Assembly (NCBI GenBank): GCA_965227295.1
Contig: OZ245742.1
Location: 1,792,001-1,856,000 of the forward strand
Source of the DNA: Leptonemataceae bacterium
GTDB lineage: Bacteria > Spirochaetota > Leptospiria > Leptospirales > Leptonemataceae
Length of the DNA stretch: 64,000 nt
Direction: 5' to 3'
The position numbers and the translations under genes are program-made. Below, piece by piece: positions 307 to 54,017 of this stretch. How positions within the stretch are numbered: position 1 is the stretch's first letter; every line of letters starts with the position of its first letter. The notes under the pieces were generated by a model. It searched no databases and was not told the origin of the DNA. It saw nothing but the letters and a program-made list of their open reading frames with translations.

Positions 307-324
307 GTAACGTGTGTTTCGGTT

Positions 325-597
325 GTTCGCAGACGGTCCGAATCGTGGTGTAAGTGGCGGTCAGTGTACATTAAGGCTTTTATGGTCACGGCTGGTTCCA
401 GCTGACGAGCGGAGGCCATGCCGGCGGGCGTGGTAAGGCGGACCGGAACGGCGTCGTCGCTTCGGAAAAACATCAAGCGAAGGCGCACTCCGGAGCCCCG
501 CTCTATCCGCGGGGCGGAGCGAGTGCGCCTTCGCGCCCGGCGTCGTCGGTGCAAAAAACGCTGGCGTAGCCGAAAAAATTCCTTAACCATTGCACAT
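325..597 (+). repeat. Dispersed modular intergenic repeat, locus 1
   Basis: Shares CCGAATCGTGGTGTAAGT...ATTAAG..TTTTATGG...CTGGTTCCAGCTGACG...GGTAAGGCGGACCGGAACGGCGTCGTCGC with 49375-50097, and a 30-bp identical hairpin core with 9128-9157. Confidence 0.92.
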
Positions 598-603
598 GGT
601 AAG

Positions 604-1905
604 TTAAGTTTCCAGTCCCAATCGCCGGAAGATGGCGTCCACGTGTCGCAGATACGGTGCGATCTGAAACACGTCGTCCAGCTCCTGCGCGGAGAGCACG
701 GCCTGTACGCGTTCATCGGCGGAGACGCGGTCCTTCAGGTTCAACTGCGGATCGTTCCAGACTTCCATGCTGTTCGACTGCACGACGGTGTAGGCGTCTT
801 CGCGTTCCATGCCGCCGTCGATGAGGCGCAGCAAGAGCTTCTGCGAAAACAGCAGGCCGCGCGTATGCCAGAGGACACGCTCCATGTTTTCCGGATACAC
901 GTGCAGGTTCTCGATGACGAAGATCATTTTACCCAGGATGTACTCGAGGGCGATGACACTGTCCGGTACGATGACGCGTTCGGTGGAGCTGTGTGAGATG
1001 TCCCGTTCGTGCCACAGCGGTTGATCGCGATAGGCCGCCTGGACGTTGGATTGGATGACCCGGGCGAGGCCGCAGACCCGCTCGCAGATCACGGGATTGC
1101 GTTTGTGCGGCATGGCCGAAGAGCCCTTCTGGCCTTTGACGAAGGGCTCTTCCACTTCGCGGCCCTCGCTCTTTTGTAGTAAGCGAATCTCCTGGGCCAT
1201 GCGTTCCAGGCCGCCGGCAATGACGCCCAGCACGCCCATGAAGTAGGCGTGGCGGTCCCGGTTCACGACCTGGGTGGTGATGGGATCCGCCGTCAGCCCC
1301 AGGCGGCGGCAGACCTCTTCTTCCAGGTCCGGATCGACGTTCGAGAACGTGCCCACGGCCCCGCTTAGCTTGCCGACGCTAATTTCTTGTTTCGCAAGTT
1401 TAAGGCGTTCCCGATCGCGCAGGAGCTCGGCGTAAAAGTTCGCCAGCTTCAGGCCCAGGGTCGTGGGTTCACCGTGGATGCCGTGGGTGCGGCCGATCAT
1501 GACCTGGTCTTTGTAACGCAGGGCTTGCTGTTTCGTAACGGTGATGAGTTGTTCGAGGCGTTCTTCCAGAATTTCGGCGGAGCGCTTCATTTGCATGCAC
1601 AGGGCCGTATCGCCGACATCGGAGCTGGTGAGCCCGTAATGGACCCAGCGGCCGGCCGGGCCGACGTTCTCGCGCACGTTAGTGAGAAAGGCGATGACGT
1701 CGTGATGTACCTCGGCTTCAATTTCGAGGATGCGGTCGAGTTGGAAGTCGGCGTTGTTTCTGATGGCCGCGAGGTCTTCGTCGGAAATTACGCCGCGGCT
1801 GTTCCAGGCTTCGCAGACGGCGATCTCCACTTCCAGCCAGGTGCGGAACTTGTTTTCCAGTTCCCAGACACCGGCAATCTCAGGGTTCGAATAACGAGGG
1901 ATCAT
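604..1905 (-). CDS. purB: Adenylosuccinate lyase
   Basis: MIPRYS start, HDVIAF, GRTHGIH, GSSAMPHKRNP lyase signature. Confidence 0.97.
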   Translation of the reverse strand: MIPRYSNPEIAGVWELENKFRTWLEVEIAVCEAWNSRGVISDEDLAAIRNNADFQLDRILEIEAEVHHDVIAFLTNVRENVGPAGRWVHYGLTSSDVGDTALCMQMKRSAEILEERLEQLITVTKQQALRYKDQVMIGRTHGIHGEPTTLGLKLANFYAELLRDRERLKLAKQEISVGKLSGAVGTFSNVDPDLEEEVCRRLGLTADPITTQVVNRDRHAYFMGVLGVIAGGLERMAQEIRLLQKSEGREVEEPFVKGQKGSSAMPHKRNPVICERVCGLARVIQSNVQAAYRDQPLWHERDISHSSTERVIVPDSVIALEYILGKMIFVIENLHVYPENMERVLWHTRGLLFSQKLLLRLIDGGMEREDAYTVVQSNSMEVWNDPQLNLKDRVSADERVQAVLSAQELDDVFQIAPYLRHVDAIFRRLGLET

Positions 1906-1984
1906 AGGTCGGATAGATTTACGCGCGAGAGCCCCGCGTCAAGCCATGTGCCGCCCTGGGTCACGCGGAACTCAAATCCCGTCG

Positions 1985-2138
1985 CGGACGCAGCGAACGA
2001 AGAACTCGTTTATTCGAAAACCGTAACCACCACGATGCGCAGCGCGTCGTATGCTTCACGCAGGCGTGCAATGCAGGCGGAGCCGTCCATGCCGGGCAGC
2101 CCCGGATCCACCGGCAGCAAACTCGCGCCGCGGTCAAT
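1985..2138 (-). pseudogene. Eroded response-regulator receiver-domain fragment
   Basis: Minus-strand translation VDPGLPGMDGSACIARLREAYDALRIVVVTVFE* followed by KRVLRSLR in a shifted frame. Confidence 0.6.
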
Positions 2139-2231
2139 AGGCCATGTCGCCCTATGTTACACCAGACTCACATGAGACCGGGCGCCGTTTTTTCTCTGGC
2201 GCTCGCAGCAGCAGGTATCCGTATGTTATTT

Positions 2232-3098
2232 ATGAAGAGAATGATCCGAGTGGCTCTGGTCCTCGTGCTGCTCGGCGGCACATCCAGTGCCTGTCTGGCC
2301 GATATTCGCCCGGACATACTAAAAGAGCGTACGTCTGCGGAAAATTCCGAAACCGCCCGGCGTCTGCTCATGGCCGCGGCGAGCCGTCAGGGCAGCCGGG
2401 AGGCCTGGCTTTCCCAGTCCGCGGTGCGCGTCCTCGTTACGGATGAGTGGGAGCCCCTGCCCAACGCCGTGGCGAATTCCTGGCCGAAGAATCCCAGCAA
2501 CATGGAATTCATTTTCATTCCCGGCGCCGACGACAGTGTGCTTCATTTTCTGGATGAGAGCTTTGCGCCCACCGGCCTTACCTGGGGCATTCATGATTGG
2601 AACACCTGGAAGCGGGAAAAAGCGCAGGCCGAGCCCCACTACGTAAGTGATAGCAAGATTAAGTTTGCGCTGCCCACCATGCAATATTTCATCGAGCTGG
2701 CGCAACGACTGCCGGACGGCGAAATCGTCGACTACGCCGGCACCCGGAGCATCGCCGGCACCGAGTACGACGTCGTCTACGTCACCTGGGGTGACTATGC
2801 GGCGCAGCCGAACATCGACCAGTACGTCGCCTACATCGACAAGGGCGACGGCTTGGTAAAGATCGTGGATTTCACCGTGCGCGACAACGCCGGCTTCGTT
2901 ACGGCGGCGGCCGTATACAAGGATTTCCGCGAACTACCGAACGGAATGTCCCTGGCGCATCGGATCGACATCACGGACCTGGGCGACTACGATTCCCTCG
3001 TGCACCAGTACTCCCTGGTCGAGGTGGAGACGAACTACGATCTCCCCGCGAGCGAGTACAAACCGGACGCGGAGCGCGGCCCCGGTTCGAAGTACTGA
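2232..3098 (+). CDS. Hypothetical exported protein or lipoprotein
   Basis: MKRMIRVALVLVLLGGTSSAC signal/lipobox-like start; codon usage typical of neighbouring genes. Confidence 0.75.
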   Translation: MKRMIRVALVLVLLGGTSSACLADIRPDILKERTSAENSETARRLLMAAASRQGSREAWLSQSAVRVLVTDEWEPLPNAVANSWPKNPSNMEFIFIPGADDSVLHFLDESFAPTGLTWGIHDWNTWKREKAQAEPHYVSDSKIKFALPTMQYFIELAQRLPDGEIVDYAGTRSIAGTEYDVVYVTWGDYAAQPNIDQYVAYIDKGDGLVKIVDFTVRDNAGFVTAAAVYKDFRELPNGMSLAHRIDITDLGDYDSLVHQYSLVEVETNYDLPASEYKPDAERGPGSKY

Positions 3099-3120
3099 AC
3101 CGCAAACCATTACAGAAGAT

Positions 3121-3750
3121 ATGTTAATAAATCTTTCCGAACTATCCACGAATCAAATCTACTACACCATGATCCAGACCATCATCCCGCGCCCGGTGGC
3201 CTGGGTGATTTCGGACAACGGCGATGACAGCCTCAACCTCGCGCCCTTTTCGTACTTCAACGGCGTCTCCAGCAATCCGCCGCTGATCATGCTGTCCATC
3301 GGTAAGAAACCCGACGGCACGCGCAAAGACACCCTGGTGAACATCGACGAGCGTAACGATTTCGTGGTGCACATCGCCCATCGCGAAATGGCGGAGCCGG
3401 TCACCTTTTCGGCGGCATCGCTGGCCCACGGGGAATCCGAACTAACTCAGCTCGGCCTGGAAACCACCGGGATCCTGGACGACGCGGGCAACTCCGTATC
3501 CCGCCTGCCGCGATTGAAAGCTGCGCGGGTGGCCTTCGTCTGCGAAAAGGAGCGCGTCATGGAAATCGGCAACACGCCCCAGGGAGTAATCTTTGGTCAT
3601 GTGAAGTTTGTCTACGTGGACGATTCCGTGGGCACGAACGTGGACGGGCGGTTGAGCGTGGATCCGACGAAGGTGGATCCCCTGTCGCGCCTGGGCGGCC
3701 AGGACTTCGGTTTGTTCGGCGACGTGATCACCGTAAAACGACCGAAGTAA
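3121..3750 (+). CDS. Flavin reductase family protein
   Basis: IPRPVAWV, NLAPFSYFN, KDTLVNI, DPLSRLGG motifs. Confidence 0.9.
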   Translation: MLINLSELSTNQIYYTMIQTIIPRPVAWVISDNGDDSLNLAPFSYFNGVSSNPPLIMLSIGKKPDGTRKDTLVNIDERNDFVVHIAHREMAEPVTFSAASLAHGESELTQLGLETTGILDDAGNSVSRLPRLKAARVAFVCEKERVMEIGNTPQGVIFGHVKFVYVDDSVGTNVDGRLSVDPTKVDPLSRLGGQDFGLFGDVITVKRPK

Positions 3751-3751
3751 C

Positions 3752-5104
3752 ATGCCTTCAGCTAACATTAGCAGCACGGCCGACACACGGCTCTCCCGCG
3801 TCATCGGTGTGCCCGGCGCCGTGCTGCTGGGCCTCGGGTCCATCGTCGGCACCGGCGTTTTTGTCAGCACCGGCATTGCCGCGGGAGTCGCCGGGCCGGC
3901 CGTCGTTCTGGCCGTGATCGTCGGCGGCGTGCTCGCCACGGTCAACGGGCTCTCCAGCGCACAACTGGCGGCGGCGTATCCAATCAGCGGCGGCACGTAC
4001 GAGTACGCGCGCCGGGTCTTTCCTGAACGTGCGAATCTCGCGTTTACGGCCGGCATCGTGTTCTTGCTCGCGAAGTCGGCCTCGGCGGCGACGGCGTCGC
4101 TGGGGTTCGCCGGTTATTTGCTGCATCTCGCCGGTGTGCCCGGCGCCGCGGAGCGTGTGATCGTGGCGGTGCTCATTACGCTCACAGTCACGGCCGTGGT
4201 TGCCGCCGGTTTGCGTCGATCGAATCGCACGAATGCGGTGCTGCTTGGCGTGACGCTCATTGCGCTGACCGTGTTTGTGGTCGGCATGCTTCCCGCCGGG
4301 ATCAGGAACGGCACCGCGAACCTGACGCCCATGTGGGACAACGGCGACACCTGGACGAACCTGCGGGCGTTCTGTGAAGCGTCGGCGCTGATGTTCGTCG
4401 CGTACACCGGCTACGGCCGGGTGGCCACGCTCGGTGAAGAGATCCGCGATCCGGCAACTAACATTCCACGAGCAGTAGTTAGCACGTTGATCATTACGTC
4501 GCTGCTGTACACCTTCGTTACCGTCGCCGCGGTGGCTGCCGCCGGGGCCGCGGAGTTCGCCGCGTCTACCACGGGCAATGCCGCGCCGCTGGAGATCCTG
4601 GCGCGGCGCTTGGCTCCACCGGAATTCGCTCCGCTTACGGCCGGTATCATTGCGGTGGGTGCCGTAAGTGCTCTGGCCGGTGTGTTGTTGAACCTGGTGC
4701 TCGGTTTATCGCGAGTGTTGTTGGGCATGGCGCGGCGGGGTGACATGCCCGGTGCTCTCGCGCAACTCAGCGACGACTCCCGGGGCGAGGCTCAGCCCCA
4801 TCGTGCGGTGTGGGCCGTCGGTGTGTTCATAGCGGGTCTGACGCTGGCCGGCGACGTGAAACTTACCTGGTCCTTCAGCGCCTTCACCGTGCTGGTGTAC
4901 TACGCGATTACGAACCTGGCGGCGTTGTTTCTTCCGCAAGATGCGCGGCGGTATCCGCGTTTCGTGAGTGCTTTCGGTTTGATCGTTTGCCTGGGGTTGG
5001 CCGCCTTCGTGGACTGGCGCATGATGGCGGCCGGCGCGGGCGTACTGGTGGCGGCCCTTATGTTCCGTTCGGTGTTTGTTAGAGGCGGAGCATCTCCTCG
5101 ATGA
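3752..5104 (+). CDS. APC-family amino acid permease
   Basis: GSIVGTGVF, SGGTYEY, FVAYTGY...LGEEIRDP..NIPRA; multiple transmembrane segments. Confidence 0.92.
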   Translation: MPSANISSTADTRLSRVIGVPGAVLLGLGSIVGTGVFVSTGIAAGVAGPAVVLAVIVGGVLATVNGLSSAQLAAAYPISGGTYEYARRVFPERANLAFTAGIVFLLAKSASAATASLGFAGYLLHLAGVPGAAERVIVAVLITLTVTAVVAAGLRRSNRTNAVLLGVTLIALTVFVVGMLPAGIRNGTANLTPMWDNGDTWTNLRAFCEASALMFVAYTGYGRVATLGEEIRDPATNIPRAVVSTLIITSLLYTFVTVAAVAAAGAAEFAASTTGNAAPLEILARRLAPPEFAPLTAGIIAVGAVSALAGVLLNLVLGLSRVLLGMARRGDMPGALAQLSDDSRGEAQPHRAVWAVGVFIAGLTLAGDVKLTWSFSAFTVLVYYAITNLAALFLPQDARRYPRFVSAFGLIVCLGLAAFVDWRMMAAGAGVLVAALMFRSVFVRGGASPR

Positions 5105-6083
5105 TCGGGCCGTGGTCCTCGAAGAATTCCTCGGCATAGAGCGCCGTGTCGGCCAGATCGATCCACTCGCCTTTCGTTTGTTTGATTTCCCAGTGATCCG
5201 GCACGTCGAAGCGAAAGACGTGCGTTAAGCGCCGCCCGGCCAGGCTGCGCTTCGGATCGTCGAAGAAACGTTGCGCGCGGATCCAGTCGTCTTTGACGAT
5301 CATGCCGCCCTTCTCGAAGGCCGAACGAACCGCGGCGTGAACCAGGGTTTCGTCGGCGCGTACAAAAGAACCCGGTAGCGCACGCAGGCCGGCGCCCAGG
5401 TCCGTGTTCTTGCGTTTGATGGTGAGGACCTTGCCCGGCCGGGTAATGACGGCGTCCACGGTCACCTGCACCGGGGCGTGTTTGAGTTTCGCAATGCGCT
5501 CCTGTTCTTTTTCGATGTAGCGAAACTCGCGGACCAGGCGCTTGTGTTCGTCCGAGTGCAGCCAGTTTTTCGCCAGATAGTTTTTCACGCCGGGGGGCAG
5601 CGGTTCGGGAATCTCGCCGTCGGCGAACAGCGCCCGACGAACCGCCGTGCCGTCCACGCCGCCTTCCTGCTCGCCGGCATCGACGAACTTCCATTCCGGG
5701 AACAGCTTTAAGTAGTACGTGCTCTCGTCTTTATCGTGGCCGAAAAGCGTCACGGAGTCGCCGCGGTTCACGTGCCGGCTTAACTTCAGTTTCAGTTCTT
5801 TTAACCAGGCGTTGTCGTCGTAGGGATGATCCAGGACGGATTCCCAGACAATGCGCCCGCCGCTTTCCAGGGCGTCGTCAAAGAGGGCCGAGAGCATGGC
5901 CACACGATCGTGCACGCGCCAGGGATTCCGTACGGTAGGCGCGCAGGCCGCCGAGCCGATGACCACGATGGTGAGCTCGGCCTTCTGCATGGCCCGCCGG
6001 ATCAGCGCCTCATGGCCGCGGTGGAACGGCTGGAAGCGGCCGATGACCACGGTGACGTTTCGAGGAGGCGTCTTAGTTTTCAT
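5079..6083 (-). CDS. NadM-Nudix type bifunctional NMN adenylyltransferase; Nudix box degenerate
   Basis: IGRFQPFHRGH (HxGH), GHDKDESTYYLKLFPEW, C-terminal FFEDH; start assumed at MKTKT (6083). Confidence 0.9.
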   Translation of the reverse strand: MKTKTPPRNVTVVIGRFQPFHRGHEALIRRAMQKAELTIVVIGSAACAPTVRNPWRVHDRVAMLSALFDDALESGGRIVWESVLDHPYDDNAWLKELKLKLSRHVNRGDSVTLFGHDKDESTYYLKLFPEWKFVDAGEQEGGVDGTAVRRALFADGEIPEPLPPGVKNYLAKNWLHSDEHKRLVREFRYIEKEQERIAKLKHAPVQVTVDAVITRPGKVLTIKRKNTDLGAGLRALPGSFVRADETLVHAAVRSAFEKGGMIVKDDWIRAQRFFDDPKRSLAGRRLTHVFRFDVPDHWEIKQTKGEWIDLADTALYAEEFFEDHGPIIEEMLRL

Positions 6084-6096
6084 TGAGTGTACCTTT

Positions 6097-6133
6097 GAAA
6101 TGAAAGAACCCCGGAGCGACGGCCCCGGGGTTC
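6097..6133 (-). terminator. Terminator-like hairpin between the NAMPT and NMNAT genes
   Basis: Minus strand GAACCCCGG-N10-CCGGGGTTC followed by TTTCATTT. Confidence 0.55.
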
Positions 6134-6139
6134 GAAGAA

Positions 6140-7555
6140 TCAAACCGCAACAGCGATGCGGTGCCGTGCGCGTTTGCGGACGGCATCGAAATCGCGCGCG
6201 TAGTCGGGGAAATCATACGTGGCACGTTCCGCGTCTCCGCGATAGTAGGTCACCCAGCCGTCCGTATTCAGGCCGGCCCCGGGATCCCAGGCGGTTTTTT
6301 CTTTTTGCGTAACCGGCGTTTTCTGAACGTTACGCCACTCGCCGTCCACACGGACACCGTACATCTTCATGCTCCAGCTCATCGTGTCGCGGTTGAGCTT
6401 CTGCAGCAGGCCGCCGCCCATACCCACGACCAGGTTCTGCGGGCTGAAGCCGGCCTCGACCACGGCCCCGTACAACCGACGGATCTTGTCGTAGTCCATG
6501 CCGTCACCCTGAATGACGTTTACGCCGTCGAGGACCTTGTAGCCCTTTGCGTTCGTGTTTACGCCCCAGGTTTGTTCGAGACCGCGCAACGCGTAGAGCA
6601 CCATCTCCACGGGATCGCCGCTGTCCGGCCGGACCACGGGCGTGACGTTGTGTTTGCGGGCGAGCGCCTGGATTTCCGGATCGCCCCAGCCCTCGTCGAC
6701 CATGCGTTTGTAATCGTAGCTGTCGCTGACGAAGGCGAGCAGCGGATTCTCCGGACCGTAGGTTTCGAGCATGTGTTTGAGCGCCGCTTTCTCGGCGGCC
6801 AGGCCTTCGCCCCAGGCCGTCACGGTGCTGTGCTCCGCGGCCGGGATGCTCGCGGCCAGTTCGTCCGGCGCGGCGTTGTAGAGTTCCACGCCGCGACGCA
6901 CGCCTTCCATAGTATCTGTTCCGCGAAAGTTAATGAGATGCGCCAGGCCGCCGTTCGCGGCACTCAGTCCGCTGGTGGCACCGCGGGCGCCGAAGTCGTG
7001 CAGACGATAGTCCAGCGTCCAGTAGTCATCCGCCTCGACCGTATCCGCGTACAGATCTTCCAGAAACGCGCGCACGTTGCGGCTGTTCGTCGCCACGGTG
7101 CTCCCGTACCATACGTCGCGCTGTAGCGCCGTTTCGAGGAAACCCGGCAAGAACAGAAAGTCCGGGCGCAGGCACTCAACAATCAACAGCGGCTCGTTGT
7201 AGCGATCCGTGACGGTTCCCTCGGGAACGCCGTAGATGTTGATCGGATACTTATAGTTTTTCCCGTGCAGTTCGACGAGATTTTCGAACGGCGCAAAGGG
7301 AAACGGATACGGCGTGCCGCCGACGTTGAAGTGATCCCAGATGGCCCGGGCTTCTTGAATGTCGTCGCGGGTGAGCACGTTATCCAGGTAGTCGTGGATG
7401 AACGCGGTTACGCCGAAGAAGAGGAACTCCCGTAGTTCGGGAGCGATGGGTTTGCGCGGTGCCAGGTAGTATCGTGCGGCATCGGCATTCGGTGGGAAGA
7501 GACGGCTGTGGCTGCCCTTGTAGGCGTCCGTCGCCAACAAAAGATTCGGTTTCAT
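6140..7555 (-). CDS. nadV: Nicotinamide phosphoribosyltransferase (NAMPT)
   Basis: TDAYKGSH, LHDFGARG, SIPAAEHST, SDSYD, VVRPDSGDP, IQGDG, GMGGGLLQK.NRDT. Confidence 0.92.
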   Translation of the reverse strand: MKPNLLLATDAYKGSHSRLFPPNADAARYYLAPRKPIAPELREFLFFGVTAFIHDYLDNVLTRDDIQEARAIWDHFNVGGTPYPFPFAPFENLVELHGKNYKYPINIYGVPEGTVTDRYNEPLLIVECLRPDFLFLPGFLETALQRDVWYGSTVATNSRNVRAFLEDLYADTVEADDYWTLDYRLHDFGARGATSGLSAANGGLAHLINFRGTDTMEGVRRGVELYNAAPDELAASIPAAEHSTVTAWGEGLAAEKAALKHMLETYGPENPLLAFVSDSYDYKRMVDEGWGDPEIQALARKHNVTPVVRPDSGDPVEMVLYALRGLEQTWGVNTNAKGYKVLDGVNVIQGDGMDYDKIRRLYGAVVEAGFSPQNLVVGMGGGLLQKLNRDTMSWSMKMYGVRVDGEWRNVQKTPVTQKEKTAWDPGAGLNTDGWVTYYRGDAERATYDFPDYARDFDAVRKRARHRIAVAV

Positions 7556-7773
7556 GGGGTTACCCCTTTAACTAAGTTTGAGAGTTTCAGGCGGAACTCA
7601 CAACCGACCCGTGAGGGATCTACTGTTAAGATCGGAACACAGGCGCGCAGCGTCAAGGGATATGCGGGAAAAATTTACCGCCAACGCGCGCTTTAAGCAG
7701 TGCGCACTTTTTTGGGATGATAGAATATTTTTTTTGTACGCGGTGGATTAATTTTTCGCGAAGCTTCCAGGAA

Positions 7774-8766
7774 TCAGGTCCTCCGGGAGGACTCGCTCAC
7801 GTGTCTTTCGATTGCCAGCGCATCCACCGATCCCAATCCCGCCAGCGGCACGCGTACATCTTCGTCGTCGGACGTACGGATCATTAAGAGCGGCAGTCCG
7901 CCGTAGGCATCGAAGCTGTACGAAACGTTCTGAATCTCCGCGCGCGTAATCTCGCCCACGGCATACAACGCCCCGTCCTGCTCGCGCCGCCCGAAAGACA
8001 GCTCCTCGCGGCCGAGCAGTAACATGCGCTCCTTGAATGTTAACGAGAAAGCGGCATACACCAGAAAAGCGGCGAACAGAATGCCCGGCGTCCAGAAGTA
8101 GGGCGCCGTGGCTTCGAATTCCAGCAACGCCCCGGCCGCGATGGAGGCTATGCCCAGAAACAACAGCACGATCCAGGTCAGCGCGCGATTCGAAATGCGG
8201 TCGCGCCAGATCAACACCGTCTCGCCTTCGGATGTCCGCTCCGTTTTATACGAAGGCTCCGCAGAAACCGGCTCGGCCGGCCCCGCGTTTTCGTGCGCGA
8301 ACGCCTGCAAGCGTTCCGCCATGCCTTCGGCCAGGCCGCGCCGATTGCACTGAATCACGTCGAACAATGCGCCGTTTTTGCGCTTCAGCGCCACCATGAC
8401 CCGCCCGCGACCGCGAAAGCGCAGCGACGTCGTTTCGATCTCTGCGAAGGGAACCGCGGCGGCCGGCTCATTGTCCCCGGCGCGCACGTAAATGTTCACG
8501 CGCTTTTGCGCGGCATCGAAGACGATCTTTGCGGGGAGCAGACTCATCTGCACGCGATGCAACATGGCTCCGCCGGCGAACACCAGGCCGAGGCCTGTCA
8601 GACTGAGCGTGAGCGACAGACTGCGCTCGAAGTAGAGATGTGCCACCGGTCCGCCGGCAATCGCCGCGAGGGCGGAGGCGAGCAGGACGTAGAAGAACAG
8701 TGAGAGCGATCGATCGCGCGTGAAGATGATGTGTTCGTCGGTGTTGTGGTGTAAGCTGAAGGACAT
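7774..8766 (-). CDS. Hypothetical membrane protein
   Basis: 330-aa ORF with two pairs of hydrophobic helices, each followed by a soluble segment. Confidence 0.7.
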   Translation of the reverse strand: MSFSLHHNTDEHIIFTRDRSLSLFFYVLLASALAAIAGGPVAHLYFERSLSLTLSLTGLGLVFAGGAMLHRVQMSLLPAKIVFDAAQKRVNIYVRAGDNEPAAAVPFAEIETTSLRFRGRGRVMVALKRKNGALFDVIQCNRRGLAEGMAERLQAFAHENAGPAEPVSAEPSYKTERTSEGETVLIWRDRISNRALTWIVLLFLGIASIAAGALLEFEATAPYFWTPGILFAAFLVYAAFSLTFKERMLLLGREELSFGRREQDGALYAVGEITRAEIQNVSYSFDAYGGLPLLMIRTSDDEDVRVPLAGLGSVDALAIERHVSESSRRT

Positions 8767-8893
8767 GTGTAAGATGATGCCGCGCGGTGTTCAATACGTT
8801 ACGGATACAACCGCGCCGGGCTATGCAACGATGAGGGTATCGCAGAGTAAATGAGATTTCAGAAATTCGTGTCGATAATTTCGGATGCGCGCC

Positions 8894-9416
8894 GGAGCTG
8901 AGTCAGAAACCGACGCCCGGGTAGTTCGCACACGCCCCGAATCGTGGAGTAAGTAGCGGCCAGTGTACATTAAGCCTTTTATGGGTACGGCTGGTTCCAG
9001 GGGCAAGGCCACGCTTGTCGTGGCCGCGGCAGTTGTTCCCCACCCACGGAGATTGTGCCGGGGAAATGTGGGGCGCGCACCGGAACGGCGTCTTCTTCGC
9101 AGAGATCCATTAAGCGAATCCGCACCCCGGAGCCCCGCTCTATCCGCGGGGCGGAGCGGGTGCGGATTCGCGATAGCTGAGTCACAAACCGACGTCCGGG
9201 TCGAAGCGGACCATCTTAACAAAACGAAAATCCACAACTCCCGCAAAGCCGTAGCCGTAACAACCCCTTCACCATTCAGCGACTCACTTCATGTTTCTCA
9301 CGGCAACCGTTACGAACCGCAGCTCTTGACAGACAGGAAATGTCAGGTTTTTTCGCGCACGCCCCACTCCCTGAGTTAAGTAGCGGTCAGTGTCAATTAA
9401 GCCGTGAATGGGTACA
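8894..9416 (+). repeat. Dispersed modular intergenic repeat, locus 2 (about 1.2 units)
   Basis: CACGCCCC...TAAGTAGCGG.CAGTGT...TTAAGCC occurs at 8931 and 9358; GCTGAGTCACAAACCGACGTCCGGGTCGA...AACAAAACGAAAATCCACAACTCCCGC is shared with locus 3. Confidence 0.92.
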
Positions 9417-9498
9417 GAACTGATGCGACGGACATGCTCGTCATCGATCCCGCGAGCGGCACGGCGACGCGTTCGCCGTACATCAACAAGTTGTGATC

Positions 9499-27437: not shown

Positions 27438-27511
27438 TGCGCCCAGAAGGATTCGAACCTCCGACCCCTTGATTCGTAGTCAAGTGCTCTATCCAGCTGA
27501 GCTATGGGCGC
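27438..27511 (-). tRNA. tRNA-Arg(ACG)
   Basis: GCGCCCATAGCTCAGCTGGATAGAGCACTTGACTACGAATCAAGGGGTCGGAGGTTCGAATCCTTCTGGGCGCA cloverleaf; CCA not encoded. Confidence 0.97.
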
Positions 27512-30222: not shown

Positions 30223-30569
30223 GGGGACGAAATGGCTTCGACTGCTGTGATTTCGAGGCTTTGATTGCATGCAGAGTTGAGGAACTCTTCAAAACCTCAC
30301 CCTATAACTGCCAACAACGAAATGGCTCTCGCAGCTTAATCATAGCTGCTTGCGCTCGCCTGAAGTTCCCTTCCGGGCTTCGGGATGAGTGTCACTTTAC
30401 GGAAGGTGAGTCGATCGGGTGCGAGCTGCAGATCGGCTGACGTTTACAGTTCGCGAAGTGTTGTCCGTCCTGTCGATGGGTAAGGGCGGCACTTAACTGA
30501 TCATCGACTAAGCATGTAGAGGTCACTGTCTTGCACCGTAGGACGCGGGTTCGACTCCCGCCGTCTCCA
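30223..30569 (+). ncRNA. ssrA: tmRNA; tag peptide ANNEMALAA
   Basis: 5' GGGGACGAAATGGCTTCGAC, 3' GGACGCGGGTTCGACTCCCGCCGTCTCCA; tag reading frame 30310-30339. Confidence 0.96.
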
Positions 30570-30577
30570 ATATAGTT

Positions 30578-49374: not shown

Positions 49375-50097
49375 ACACGCCCCGAATCGTGATGTAAGTG
49401 GTGGCCAGTGTACATTAAGACTTTTATGGGTACAACTGGTTCCAGCTGACGTACGGAGGTCATGCCGGGGACCTTGGTAAGGCGGACCGGAACGGCGTCG
49501 TCGCTGCGGAAAAAACATCAAGCGAAGGCGCACCGGAACGGCGTTTTCCTCGCAGCATTCGCCAACGGAGCTGAGTCACAAACCGACGTCCGGGTCGAGA
49601 CGGACAGTCTAAACAAAACGAAAATCCACAACTCCCGCTCAGCCGTAGCCAAAAAAATAACTTCACCGTTGCGCAACTTACTTCGTGTTTCTCACGGCAA
49701 CAGTCACGAACCGCAGTCCTTGAACTACCGGAAACGCCCGGGCAGTTCGCACACGCCCCGAATCGTGGTGTAAGTGACGGCCAGCTTGTATTAAGCCTTT
49801 TTTGGGTACAACTGGTTCCAGCTGACGAGCGGAGGTCGGGCAGGGGAGCATGGTAAGGCGGACCGGAACGGCGTCGTCGCTTCGGAAAAAACATCAAGCG
49901 AAGGCGCACCGGAACGGCGTTTTCCTCGCAGCATTCGCCAACGGGAGCTGAGTCACAAACCGACGTCCGGGTCGAGACGGACAGTCTTAACAAAACGAAA
50001 ATCCACAACTCCCGCTCAGCTGTAGCAAACAAGTCCCTTCACCGTTGGGCGACTTGTTTCATGTTTCTCGCGGCGACGGTTGCGAACCGCTGCTCTT
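49375..50097 (+). repeat. Dispersed modular repeat, locus 3: tandem dimer with a 376-bp period
   Basis: ACACGCCCCGAATCGT at 49375 and 49751; the two units are collinear and near-identical over long blocks. Confidence 0.95.
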
Positions 50098-53648: not shown

Positions 53649-53721
53649 GCTGCCTTAGCTTAGTTGGTAGAGCAGCTGACTTGTAATCAGCAGGTCGTGG
53701 GTTCGATTCCTACAGGCAGCA
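53649..53721 (+). tRNA. tRNA-Thr(TGT)
   Basis: GCTGCCT/AGGCAGC acceptor stem, CTGACTTGTAATCAG anticodon arm, GTTCGATTC. Confidence 0.96.
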
Positions 53722-53731
53722 CAGTGAAAAG

Positions 53732-53813
53732 GGGCAGATGCCCGAGTGGTTAAAGGGAGCAGACTGTAAATCTGCCGGCGTAGCCTACGAAGGTTCGAAT
53801 CCTTCTCTGCCCA
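53732..53813 (+). tRNA. tRNA-Tyr(GTA)
   Basis: GGGCAGA/TCTGCCC acceptor stem, GCAGACTGTAAATCTGC anticodon arm, long variable arm. Confidence 0.96.
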
Positions 53814-53816
53814 GAT

Positions 53817-53860
53817 CGGCGCGGGGCATACATACTCTTCCAGGTGTATGCCCCGTGCCG
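53817..53860. terminator. Long hairpin after the tRNA pair
   Basis: CGGCGCGGGGCATACAT...GTGTATGCCCCGTGCCG. Confidence 0.5.
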
Positions 53861-53889
53861 AATGTGTTGTCACACAAAAGTCGTATGTG

Positions 53890-54017
53890 GCTCAGCCGTA
53901 GCCACATCAAAGCCTTCCTCATTGCGCAGCTTACCTTTCGATTCTCACGGTCCACACCGTGAACCACGGCTCTTGAACTACCCGAAGCTTTCCATTGGTT
54001 CGGTCACGCCCCAAATC
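53890..54017 (+). repeat. Dispersed modular repeat, locus 4 (degenerate partial copy)
   Basis: GCTCAGCCGTAGCC, TTGCGCA.CTTAC, TTCTCACGG, GAACC...CTTGAACTACC, CACGCCCC.AATC in the same order as 49637-49764. Confidence 0.75.

Follow-up and report, generated by a model that had tools for sequence, protein, structure and literature searches.

Which parts of a hairpin must keep their sequence, and which need only remain paired? The question is raised by a nested hairpin that occurs twice in a 64,000-nt stretch of the forward strand of contig OZ245742.1 (positions 1,792,001–1,856,000), hereafter the window, from a Leptonemataceae bacterium (GCA_965227295.1) whose contig is complete, with 5.94 Mb at 59.8% G+C. 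The original prediction, based on these two copies, had proposed an invariant core within a structure kept by compensation and had viewed the hairpin as a cassette. We find that the hairpin is under constraint as a stem-loop and that it is part of a lineage-specific, non-coding mosaic repeat, which lies in intergenic DNA and mostly behind genes. Almost any sequence is tolerated in its outer 14-bp helix provided that pairing is kept, and its inner part is nearly constant in sequence. The hairpin is very probably a selected structural module of this mosaic repeat.

Architecture and covariation of the hairpin

The coordinates of the two copies and of the other features in the window are collected in Table 1. 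The perfect 14-bp stems of both copies were confirmed base for base, as was the identical 30-nt enclosure with its 7-bp inner stem and GGA flanks. The three compensatory changes between the copies are exactly as had been claimed, with G-C replaced by T-A at arm position 6, G-C by C-G at position 7, and T-A by C-G at position 13. In both copies, the inner stem-loop is bordered by CGGA and GGAGC. RNA folding predicted the same shape from the foot to the tip: the outer 14-bp helix is followed by a C-G pair next to a bulged C, and then by an internal loop (3x3, GGA/GGA), a 7-bp stem, and a 7-nt loop. The predicted energies are -47.9 kcal/mol (z -4.6) for copy 1 and -48.0 kcal/mol (z -6.2) for copy 2, which none of 200 shuffled sequences equalled. 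The exact 30-mer core occurs 22 times in the 5.94-Mb genome and the inner 22-mer 25 times. Since no shuffle folds as stably and the 30-mer recurs exactly at 22 sites, the hairpin is far beyond chance.

We aligned 25 copies with MAFFT and derived from them a covariance model, which retrieved 44 forward-strand copies (40 distinct rows); the larger alignment was fitted to the structure of the model. In the genomic copies collected in this way and compared with shuffles, the arms stay paired and are not randomly mutated. Among the 25 copies, 96.6% of the cells are paired and both sides have changed at 5 of the 14 outer pairs (30 cells), giving a covariation score of 0.161 as opposed to 0.062 +/- 0.010 in shuffles, none of which reached the observed value in 500 trials. 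The inner stem does not vary in this set. Among the 44 copies, 96.5% of the pair cells are standard, changes on both sides affect 12 of 21 pairs in 68 cells, and no shuffle out of 500 matches any of five measures. Sliding the partner by 1–3 columns leaves only 35–56% of the cells paired. Arm position 6 illustrates the freedom of the helix, being occupied by G-C, U-A, U·G, or C-G in different copies.

The arms and the core differ markedly in how far their sequences have diverged. Among the 36 hairpin-bearing units of the repeat described below, the mean pairwise identity reaches 0.958 in the core but only 0.806 in the 5' module and 0.777 in the arms, indicating that the arms drift like the neighbouring repeat DNA yet stay paired, while the core is nearly fixed. 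The per-column majority fractions follow the same order (inner stem 0.980, internal loop 0.947, apical loop 0.925, arms 0.837, and 10-nt flanks 0.614). The GGA/GGA positions are conserved in 37–39 of the 40 distinct copies, depending on the position, including four orphan copies outside the repeat. Both GGA motifs are on the same strand and thereby break the palindrome. Because the core is not palindromic, simple fold-back copying can neither make nor keep it, and the retention of this loop points to one specific strand acting in single-stranded form and away from a simple palindrome in DNA. The invariant core and the compensated structure, which had been proposed from two copies, are thus strongly upheld on 44.

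The hairpin as an optional module of a mosaic repeat

Both loci belong to a unit of ~320 nt, for which BLAST and nhmmer gave 296 matches at 110 loci. The arrays comprise 1–10 matches each, all head-to-tail, and mixed strands were found at none of the 110 loci. The family occupies approximately 1.3% of the genome, as estimated from ~250 units of ~320 nt. Arrays start at unit position 0–24 at 74 of the 110 loci, and they end near position 300 at 47 loci and near positions 125–175 at 33 loci. These start and end positions indicate that the unit falls into two halves, which are variably combined with extra modules.

Cassette-like behaviour of the hairpin holds genome-wide: it is an optional module, carried by 36 of the 211 units with a 5' module, and together with a leader of ~10 nt it takes the place of ~11 nt of the hairpin-less form. 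On a tree of the 5' modules the carriers are scattered, with 28 state changes for 36 carriers, and the ten shuffles listed gave 33–35. The hairpin is joined to at least three left contexts and to four right contexts. Its 5' flank reads ...CATCAA (or CATCCC and similar), and its 3' flank is GATAGC, GCCCGG, GGCTTA, or unique DNA. Most copies have arms ending in GCGAA.../...TTCGC, and chimeric copies exist in which a left arm of type A is combined with a right arm of type B. An enrichment of hairpins at array ends was considered and rejected, as 18 of 41 hairpins are terminal in their array, about as many as the share of terminal units predicts.

The remainder of the unit gave no sign of coding or of folding. 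No shared reading frame was found in the unit, with the best stop-free frame present in 51 of 112 units, and no consensus fold was obtained outside the hairpin (RNAalifold, -2.2 and -4.9 kcal/mol). Nor was a covarying stem detected elsewhere in the unit, the maximum being 6 double-change cells per stem across 112 copies. In the absence of a consensus fold or a covarying stem in the rest of the unit, the hairpin is its only structured part. We also looked for an autonomous parent element among unit halves separated by genes and rejected it; the sole candidates contain an ordinary gene, which has a weak concanavalin-like match, and an acyltransferase-like open reading frame (ORF).

In the window, the unit at locus 1 begins 17 nt past the stop codon of an upstream ORF on the + strand (end 306) and adjoins the 3' end of a converging ORF at 604–1905. 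The short repeat ahead of locus 2 is due to the head-to-tail periodicity of the family, and a target-site duplication is excluded. At locus 3, the 5' module (9352–9415, 77% identical to that of locus 2) is followed by a degenerate conserved module and by a CATCAA leader at ~9481–9486. The left arm of the hairpin had been reported as retained at this locus, which was wrong: no base of the 58-nt hairpin occurs there, the left arm included. The purB-like protein encoded in the window has its nearest relatives, at no more than 82% identity, in metagenome-assembled genomes (MAGs) labelled Leptospirales, Leptonemataceae, and Spirochaetales.

Table 1. Features of the hairpin and of the repeat in the window (positions in nt of the window unless stated otherwise).
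Feature	Position	Strand	Description and evidence
Hairpin copy 1	477..534	+	58 nt, nested; arm type A; sequence reading, RNA and DNA fold, covariation
Copy 1, outer arms	477–490 / 521–534		Perfect 14-bp helix
Copy 1, closing pair	C491–G519		C520 bulged
Copy 1, internal loop	492–494 / 516–518		3x3, GGA/GGA
Copy 1, inner stem	495–501 / 509–515		7 bp, GCCCCGC/GCGGGGC
Copy 1, apical loop	502–508		7 nt, UCUAUCC
Hairpin copy 2	9114..9171	+	58 nt, nested; arm type B; sequence reading, RNA and DNA fold, covariation
Copy 2, outer arms	9114–9127 / 9158–9171		Perfect 14-bp helix
Copy 2, core	9128–9157		30 nt, identical to 491–520 of copy 1
Unit at locus 1	323..626	+	nhmmer match (contig 1792323–1792626), unit positions 2–294; direct repeats
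Modules of locus 1			5' module ~321–401; conserved 'CCGGAACGGCGTC' module ~438–460; CATCAA leader; hairpin; 3'-module-like tail
3'-half module fragment ahead of locus 2	8896..8922	+	27-nt direct repeat of 9175–9201, 93% identical
Unit at locus 2	8923..9329	+	Two nhmmer matches, unit positions 3–146 and 151–312; direct repeats
Modules of locus 2			5' module; longer variable stretch 9001–9074; conserved module; hairpin; 3' half of the unit
Locus 3, truncated third unit without hairpin	9352..9486	+	Direct repeat, BLAST, sequence
Second array, without hairpin	49375..50096	+	Four nhmmer matches (contig 1841375–1842096)
Isolated 3' fragment of the unit	53855..53973	+	Unit positions 200–309 (contig 1845855–1845973)

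Gene context, orphan copies, and strand

The location of the arrays was counted on gene calls from our own heuristic. Arrays lie between convergent genes at 50 of the 110 loci, compared with 893 of 4655 gene pairs genome-wide, between co-directional genes at 52, and between divergent genes at 8. Units in co-directional gaps have no strand preference (25 vs 27), and units that follow a co-oriented gene often begin within a few bases of its stop codon.

Four orphan copies of the hairpin are located outside any unit, 20–142 nt behind the stop codons of fliS-like, P-II, ahpC-like, and groEL genes. They share the GGA/GGA loop and have a variant inner stem, in which the second inner pair is changed from C-G to G-C. 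The outer arms of each orphan bear no relation to those of the other orphans or of the main family, and they are still paired; behind the P-II gene, one arm extends over the stop codon. The groEL orphan is missing in all four relatives from which the 3' end of groEL was recovered (G001, G002, G019, and G008). These relatives have only a canonical terminator behind groEL, and the host keeps the same terminator downstream of the orphan, which identifies the orphan as a lineage-specific insertion. A solo inner hairpin (CCCGC, a TCTATTC loop, and GCGGG), lacking GGA loops and outer arms, adjoins the fliS-like orphan at contig positions 2037180–2037215. At contig positions 5142600–5142700 on the - strand, a unit breaks off after its first ~30 nt and is followed by a small core-like hairpin and by an inverted copy of ~20 nt of the unit start; the resulting long palindrome exemplifies arms made by inverted duplication of local sequence.

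Wobble pairs are unequally distributed between the strands. Pairing confined to the forward strand (G·U type) occurs in 25 cells, and pairing that would be confined to the reverse strand (A·C type) in 6; accordingly, reading the forward strand gives 96.5% paired cells and reading the reverse strand 94.2%. The asymmetry favours the forward strand and is suggestive, not decisive. All 41 unit-borne hairpins have the orientation of their own unit. The forward strand of the unit is the lagging-strand template at 68 of the 110 loci (62%, p = 0.017), for 3 of the 4 orphans, and for 25 of the 41 unit-borne hairpins. Cumulative GC skew places the origin of replication at ~1.18 Mb and its terminus at ~4.09 Mb, and ~53% of the gene calls, which are heuristic, are co-oriented with replication.

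Possible roles and origins of the hairpin

Our best reading overall is a selected, strand-specific hairpin within a BIME/NIME-like mosaic repeat (bacterial interspersed and Neisseria intergenic mosaic elements, respectively), presumably serving for protein docking. The constant, non-palindromic inner part might be the docking site of a protein that reads the folded single strand. We favour that the forward strand of the unit is read as RNA, where the hairpin could act as a stable 3' end or as a processing barrier on transcripts running into or out of the arrays, by analogy with the barrier role of the hairpins of repetitive extragenic palindromes (REPs) and BIMEs in enterobacteria. A purine 3x3 loop is typical of RNA–protein sites. 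The tolerance of wobble pairs, this purine loop, and the location at gene 3' ends speak for RNA, as does the failure to find the ssDNA-hairpin enzymes searched for (ssDNA, single-stranded DNA), namely Y1 transposase/RAYT and TnpB. We hold the RNA-level mechanism tentatively and give it slightly less than an even chance of being the right one. A bolder proposal, which we consider quite improbable, is a candidate single-strand-specific protein of a new kind that reads the GGA/GGA loop together with the fixed 7-bp hairpin, ignores the outer stem, and builds or shuffles the repeat by its activity. Such a protein might act on RNA, in 3'-end processing or stabilisation, or on ssDNA, as a nuclease or recombinase of a family that has not been linked to repeats before. 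If so, Spirochaetota would have a new system of hairpin and enzyme, on a par with REP-RAYT or NTS-Ssn.

Several observations weigh against selection on the structure and against its reading as RNA. In the 25-copy set, the number of double-change pairs was matched by 19 of 500 shuffles and that of further pair types by 164 of 500. All copies are paralogues of one genome, so the cells are not independent, and the 44-copy alignment is fitted to the model. The wobble asymmetry amounts to ~13 classes versus 5, and 7 of the 25 G·U cells share one U·G haplotype. The predicted stability is equal on both strands, at approximately -47 to -48 kcal/mol for RNA and -28 kcal/mol for DNA (-28.4 for copy 1). 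Orientation toward genes is not uniform: between co-directional genes, 9 unit-borne hairpins are sense and 4 antisense, and all four orphans are antisense to the gene ahead, whose mRNA would thus contain the motif in reverse-complement form. The search for a sigma-70-like promoter or a U-tract terminator at the unit and the hairpin gave nothing beyond chance.

The hairpin could alternatively fold in ssDNA during replication or repair and be recognised by a candidate nuclease, transposase, or recombinase, whose activity would spread, shuffle, or cut the modules. Precedents are RAYT with REP, TnpA with the ends of IS200/IS605, Ssn with NTS/SRM, and IntI with attC. From its scatter over the 5'-module tree and its varied left and right contexts, the hairpin indeed behaves as a separately moving or recombining piece, and the orphans, as lineage-specific insertions (seen for the one behind groEL), speak for the same reading. 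The mixed orientation toward genes and the antisense orphans fit DNA better than mRNA, the lagging-strand-template bias points weakly in the same direction, and G·T is the most tolerated mismatch in DNA. A sequence-specific core combined with a free stem follows the logic of the known ssDNA-hairpin enzymes, although Ssn additionally depends on the sequence of its stem (PMC11893778). However, the complete 5.94-Mb contig contains no match to Y1 transposase/RAYT (PF01797), for which the positive control was found in 6 of 14 genomes, and the genome contains none to TnpB, with a working positive control. IS91-type Y2 transposase also gave no matches, a result that is uninformative because the control was silent too. 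The sole small GIY-YIG ORF (130 aa; PF01541, 56 bits; contig 308786–309178) is a single domain with a lysine-rich N-terminus, packed between ordinary genes with neither hairpin nor repeat in its flanks; NCBIfam gives it no name, and it may be closer to the UPF0213/YhbQ type. In addition, neither a GTAG nor a CGTC tag is present on the hairpin, the bias in replication strand is weak (62% of loci, 25 of 41 unit-borne hairpins), and inert copies would decay alike in core and arms, unlike what is observed. We regard an ssDNA role as less likely than the RNA reading, but as a strong rival to it.

A different question is whether any function is needed. Template switching or fold-back synthesis could keep the arms complementary in a young selfish or slippage-generated repeat, and the locus-specific arms of the orphans, one of them lying over the P-II stop codon, are what inverted copying of a local flank would give. 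The hairpin at contig position 5142645, with a core-like centre and arms that are an inverted copy of the 5' end of the unit, and the chimeric copies with type-A left and type-B right arms agree with such a process. The same process would erase the GGA/GGA loop and the bulged C, but both are kept in 36–39 of the 40 distinct copies. It also leaves unexplained why the 30-nt core is ~96% identical when the arms are at 78% and the unit DNA at 81%, and wobble and mismatch intermediates persist in the family. Absence of function is, in our estimation, highly improbable. Still harder to credit is a Rho-independent terminator carried by the repeat, despite the very stable, G+C-rich stem behind genes. 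Type-A copies precede a U-rich stretch on the reverse strand and a terminator-like site was called there, but the scan as a whole equals chance (1 site vs 0.8 expected), and no U-tract follows the forward-strand stem. The groEL gene keeps its own hairpin-plus-T-run terminator downstream of the orphan, and termination does not need invariant internal and apical loops.

Comparison with known repeat and hairpin systems

The REPs of enterobacteria and pseudomonads are palindromes of 20–40 bp in super-families tagged by GTAG or CGTC, mostly downstream of genes (PMC3733652, PMC2817692). The first of these reports places them in convergent and co-directional gaps and in mosaic composites and ascribes to them a role as barriers or stabilisers at RNA 3' ends, along with protein binding (PMC3733652). 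The element studied here is likewise a high-copy extragenic palindrome that forms a hairpin downstream of genes inside a mosaic composite repeat, with 44 copies and with arrays in 50 convergent, 52 co-directional, and 8 divergent gaps among the 110 loci. Unlike REPs, it is 58 nt long and nested with an internal loop, the foot of its stem lacks an unpaired GTAG or CGTC tag, and it is inserted optionally into a long unit (~320 nt) that is not itself palindromic. Its stem sequence is free whereas its internal loop and inner hairpin are fixed, and the genome has no RAYT (Y1 transposase), in contrast to the GTAG class of REPs. The variable combination of unit halves, hairpin module, and extra modules is that of the BIME, NIME, and BOX mosaics. 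Unlike in BIMEs, orientations do not alternate, since all units are head-to-tail and the 41 unit-borne hairpins follow their units.

In NIMEs, RS units are separated by dRS3, and NTS/SRM hairpins are cut as ssDNA by GIY-YIG nucleases of the SsnA family (PMC11893778). The same report gives the SRM motif as CGTC with an ATTCCC...GGGAAT stem, states that cutting is abolished when the stem sequence is altered and the hairpin kept, and describes Ssn as single-domain GIY-YIG genes of clade cd10448 that are usually flanked by the motif (PMC11893778). Our arrays resemble NIMEs as non-coding 50–300 nt units punctuated by a small hairpin repeat, and they resemble NTS in that a characteristic non-palindromic part orients the hairpin; NTS is a precedent for single-strand reading by a small sequence-specific enzyme. 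They differ from it in that neither arms nor core contain the SRM motif and that the stem sequence varies freely, unlike in Ssn targets. Palindromes derived from IS200/IS605 (PATE) and the TnpB omega-RNA are a poor match as well, because the genome contains neither TnpA (Y1) nor TnpB, and intrinsic terminators differ in having a T-run, which is absent behind the forward-strand stem.

The BOX element of Streptococcus pneumoniae has the form boxA-(boxB)n-boxC, with modules of 45–60 bp that fold together. It is similar to the repeat described here as a modular, non-coding, species-restricted intergenic repeat with one module that is optional or variable in number, but in our case folding is confined to a single module, and the unit is far longer and occurs in arrays. 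The attC sites of integrons are hairpins read in the single-stranded state, in which extrahelical bases and an unpaired spacer determine the strand choice and structure is conserved over sequence. An unpaired spacer between two stems and the occurrence in arrays are common to both. However, the AAC/GTT ends of attC are absent from most copies here, 36 of 211 units carry the hairpin instead of one attC per cassette, the core sequence is invariant, and the arrays are dispersed at 110 loci.

The kind of element is thus familiar from REP/BIME/NIME-like intergenic repeats, and this variant shows an unusually clear split between structure-constrained and sequence-constrained parts. Hairpin repeats behind genes are common, and most are poorly understood. 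Here, a single genome separates the parts that must be kept, i.e., the purine loop, the 7-bp stem, and its loop, from the 14 bp that must only pair, which provides a clean test case for selection on structure versus palindrome 'self-correction'. The 44 copies, together with four orphans with unrelated stems, offer a defined bait for RNA and ssDNA pull-downs. The family also shows that mosaic intergenic DNA has expanded rapidly, and in a lineage-specific manner, in a branch of Leptospirales about which little is known. If its partner were an enzyme that reads single-stranded hairpins, practical use could be possible, as with the Ssn nucleases.

Distribution of the family and other repeats

The family is previously undescribed. 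It has no match in Rfam 15, and our full-text literature search, which covered papers but not their supplementary files, returned none on such repeats in Leptospirales. In permissive scans with Rfam 15, the best score at locus 1 was 20 bits against a threshold of 55 bits, and loci 2 and 3 gave nothing. The exact 30-mer was not found in one genome each of 185,579 species, the two-motif pattern of the unit had no match among relatives, and the core patterns had none in two metagenome scans. Searches with blastn for the unit and with the covariance model matched 1 of 41 genomes, which is the host itself, and none of the 40 relatives. The nearest MAGs do not preserve the gene order behind the purB-like gene, so that an empty site is not definable there. 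Of the public runs listed with the locus, none is of RNA. In two public sequence runs that contain the locus and whose kind is unrecorded, the contigs break at the repeats, with no empty site and no sequence joined across it.

A degenerate core pattern matched 54 stretches in other phyla, and a palindromic control pattern was commoner (at least 120). Two unrelated repeat families show a core-like arrangement, one in Acidoferrales-type Acidobacteriota (18 loci) and the other in a single Victivallales MAG (9 loci), both with CGGAG, a 6–7-bp G/C stem and loop, and CGGAG, and both without a match in Rfam. The acidobacterial family sits between GTCATCCC and GGGATC arms, recalling the CGTC-tagged/SRM class, and the Victivallales family is inside an element of ~150 nt with terminal inverted repeats. 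Given the commoner control pattern, this likeness is weak evidence of kinship and may reflect convergence or chance.

We also considered a CRISPR repeat and rejected it, because the arrays of the genome use a different repeat and the hairpins are not spaced in that manner. Two CRISPR-like arrays are located at contig positions ~780340 and ~783765, with at least 12 repeats and a CCCCAC/GTGGGG stem unrelated to the hairpin. Within the window, the only Rfam 15 matches are a tmRNA at 30223–30572 (+, 167.7 bits) and three tRNAs at 27438–27511 (-), 53649–53721 (+), and 53732–53813 (+). Near-matches to the fuzzy core pattern brought up a second dispersed repeat family of ~18 copies, a G+C-rich hairpin with a CGCCTCC-like loop and conserved flanks beginning AAGCGGAGCCCG, for example at contig positions ~523539, 529933, 1767670, 2279767, 2282175, 2289586, 2367801, 2377561, 2381467, 3297590, 5007930, and 5011529. 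A third repeat family comprises ~8 copies, for example near 3524790, 4013622, 4204571, 5225386, and 5810775.

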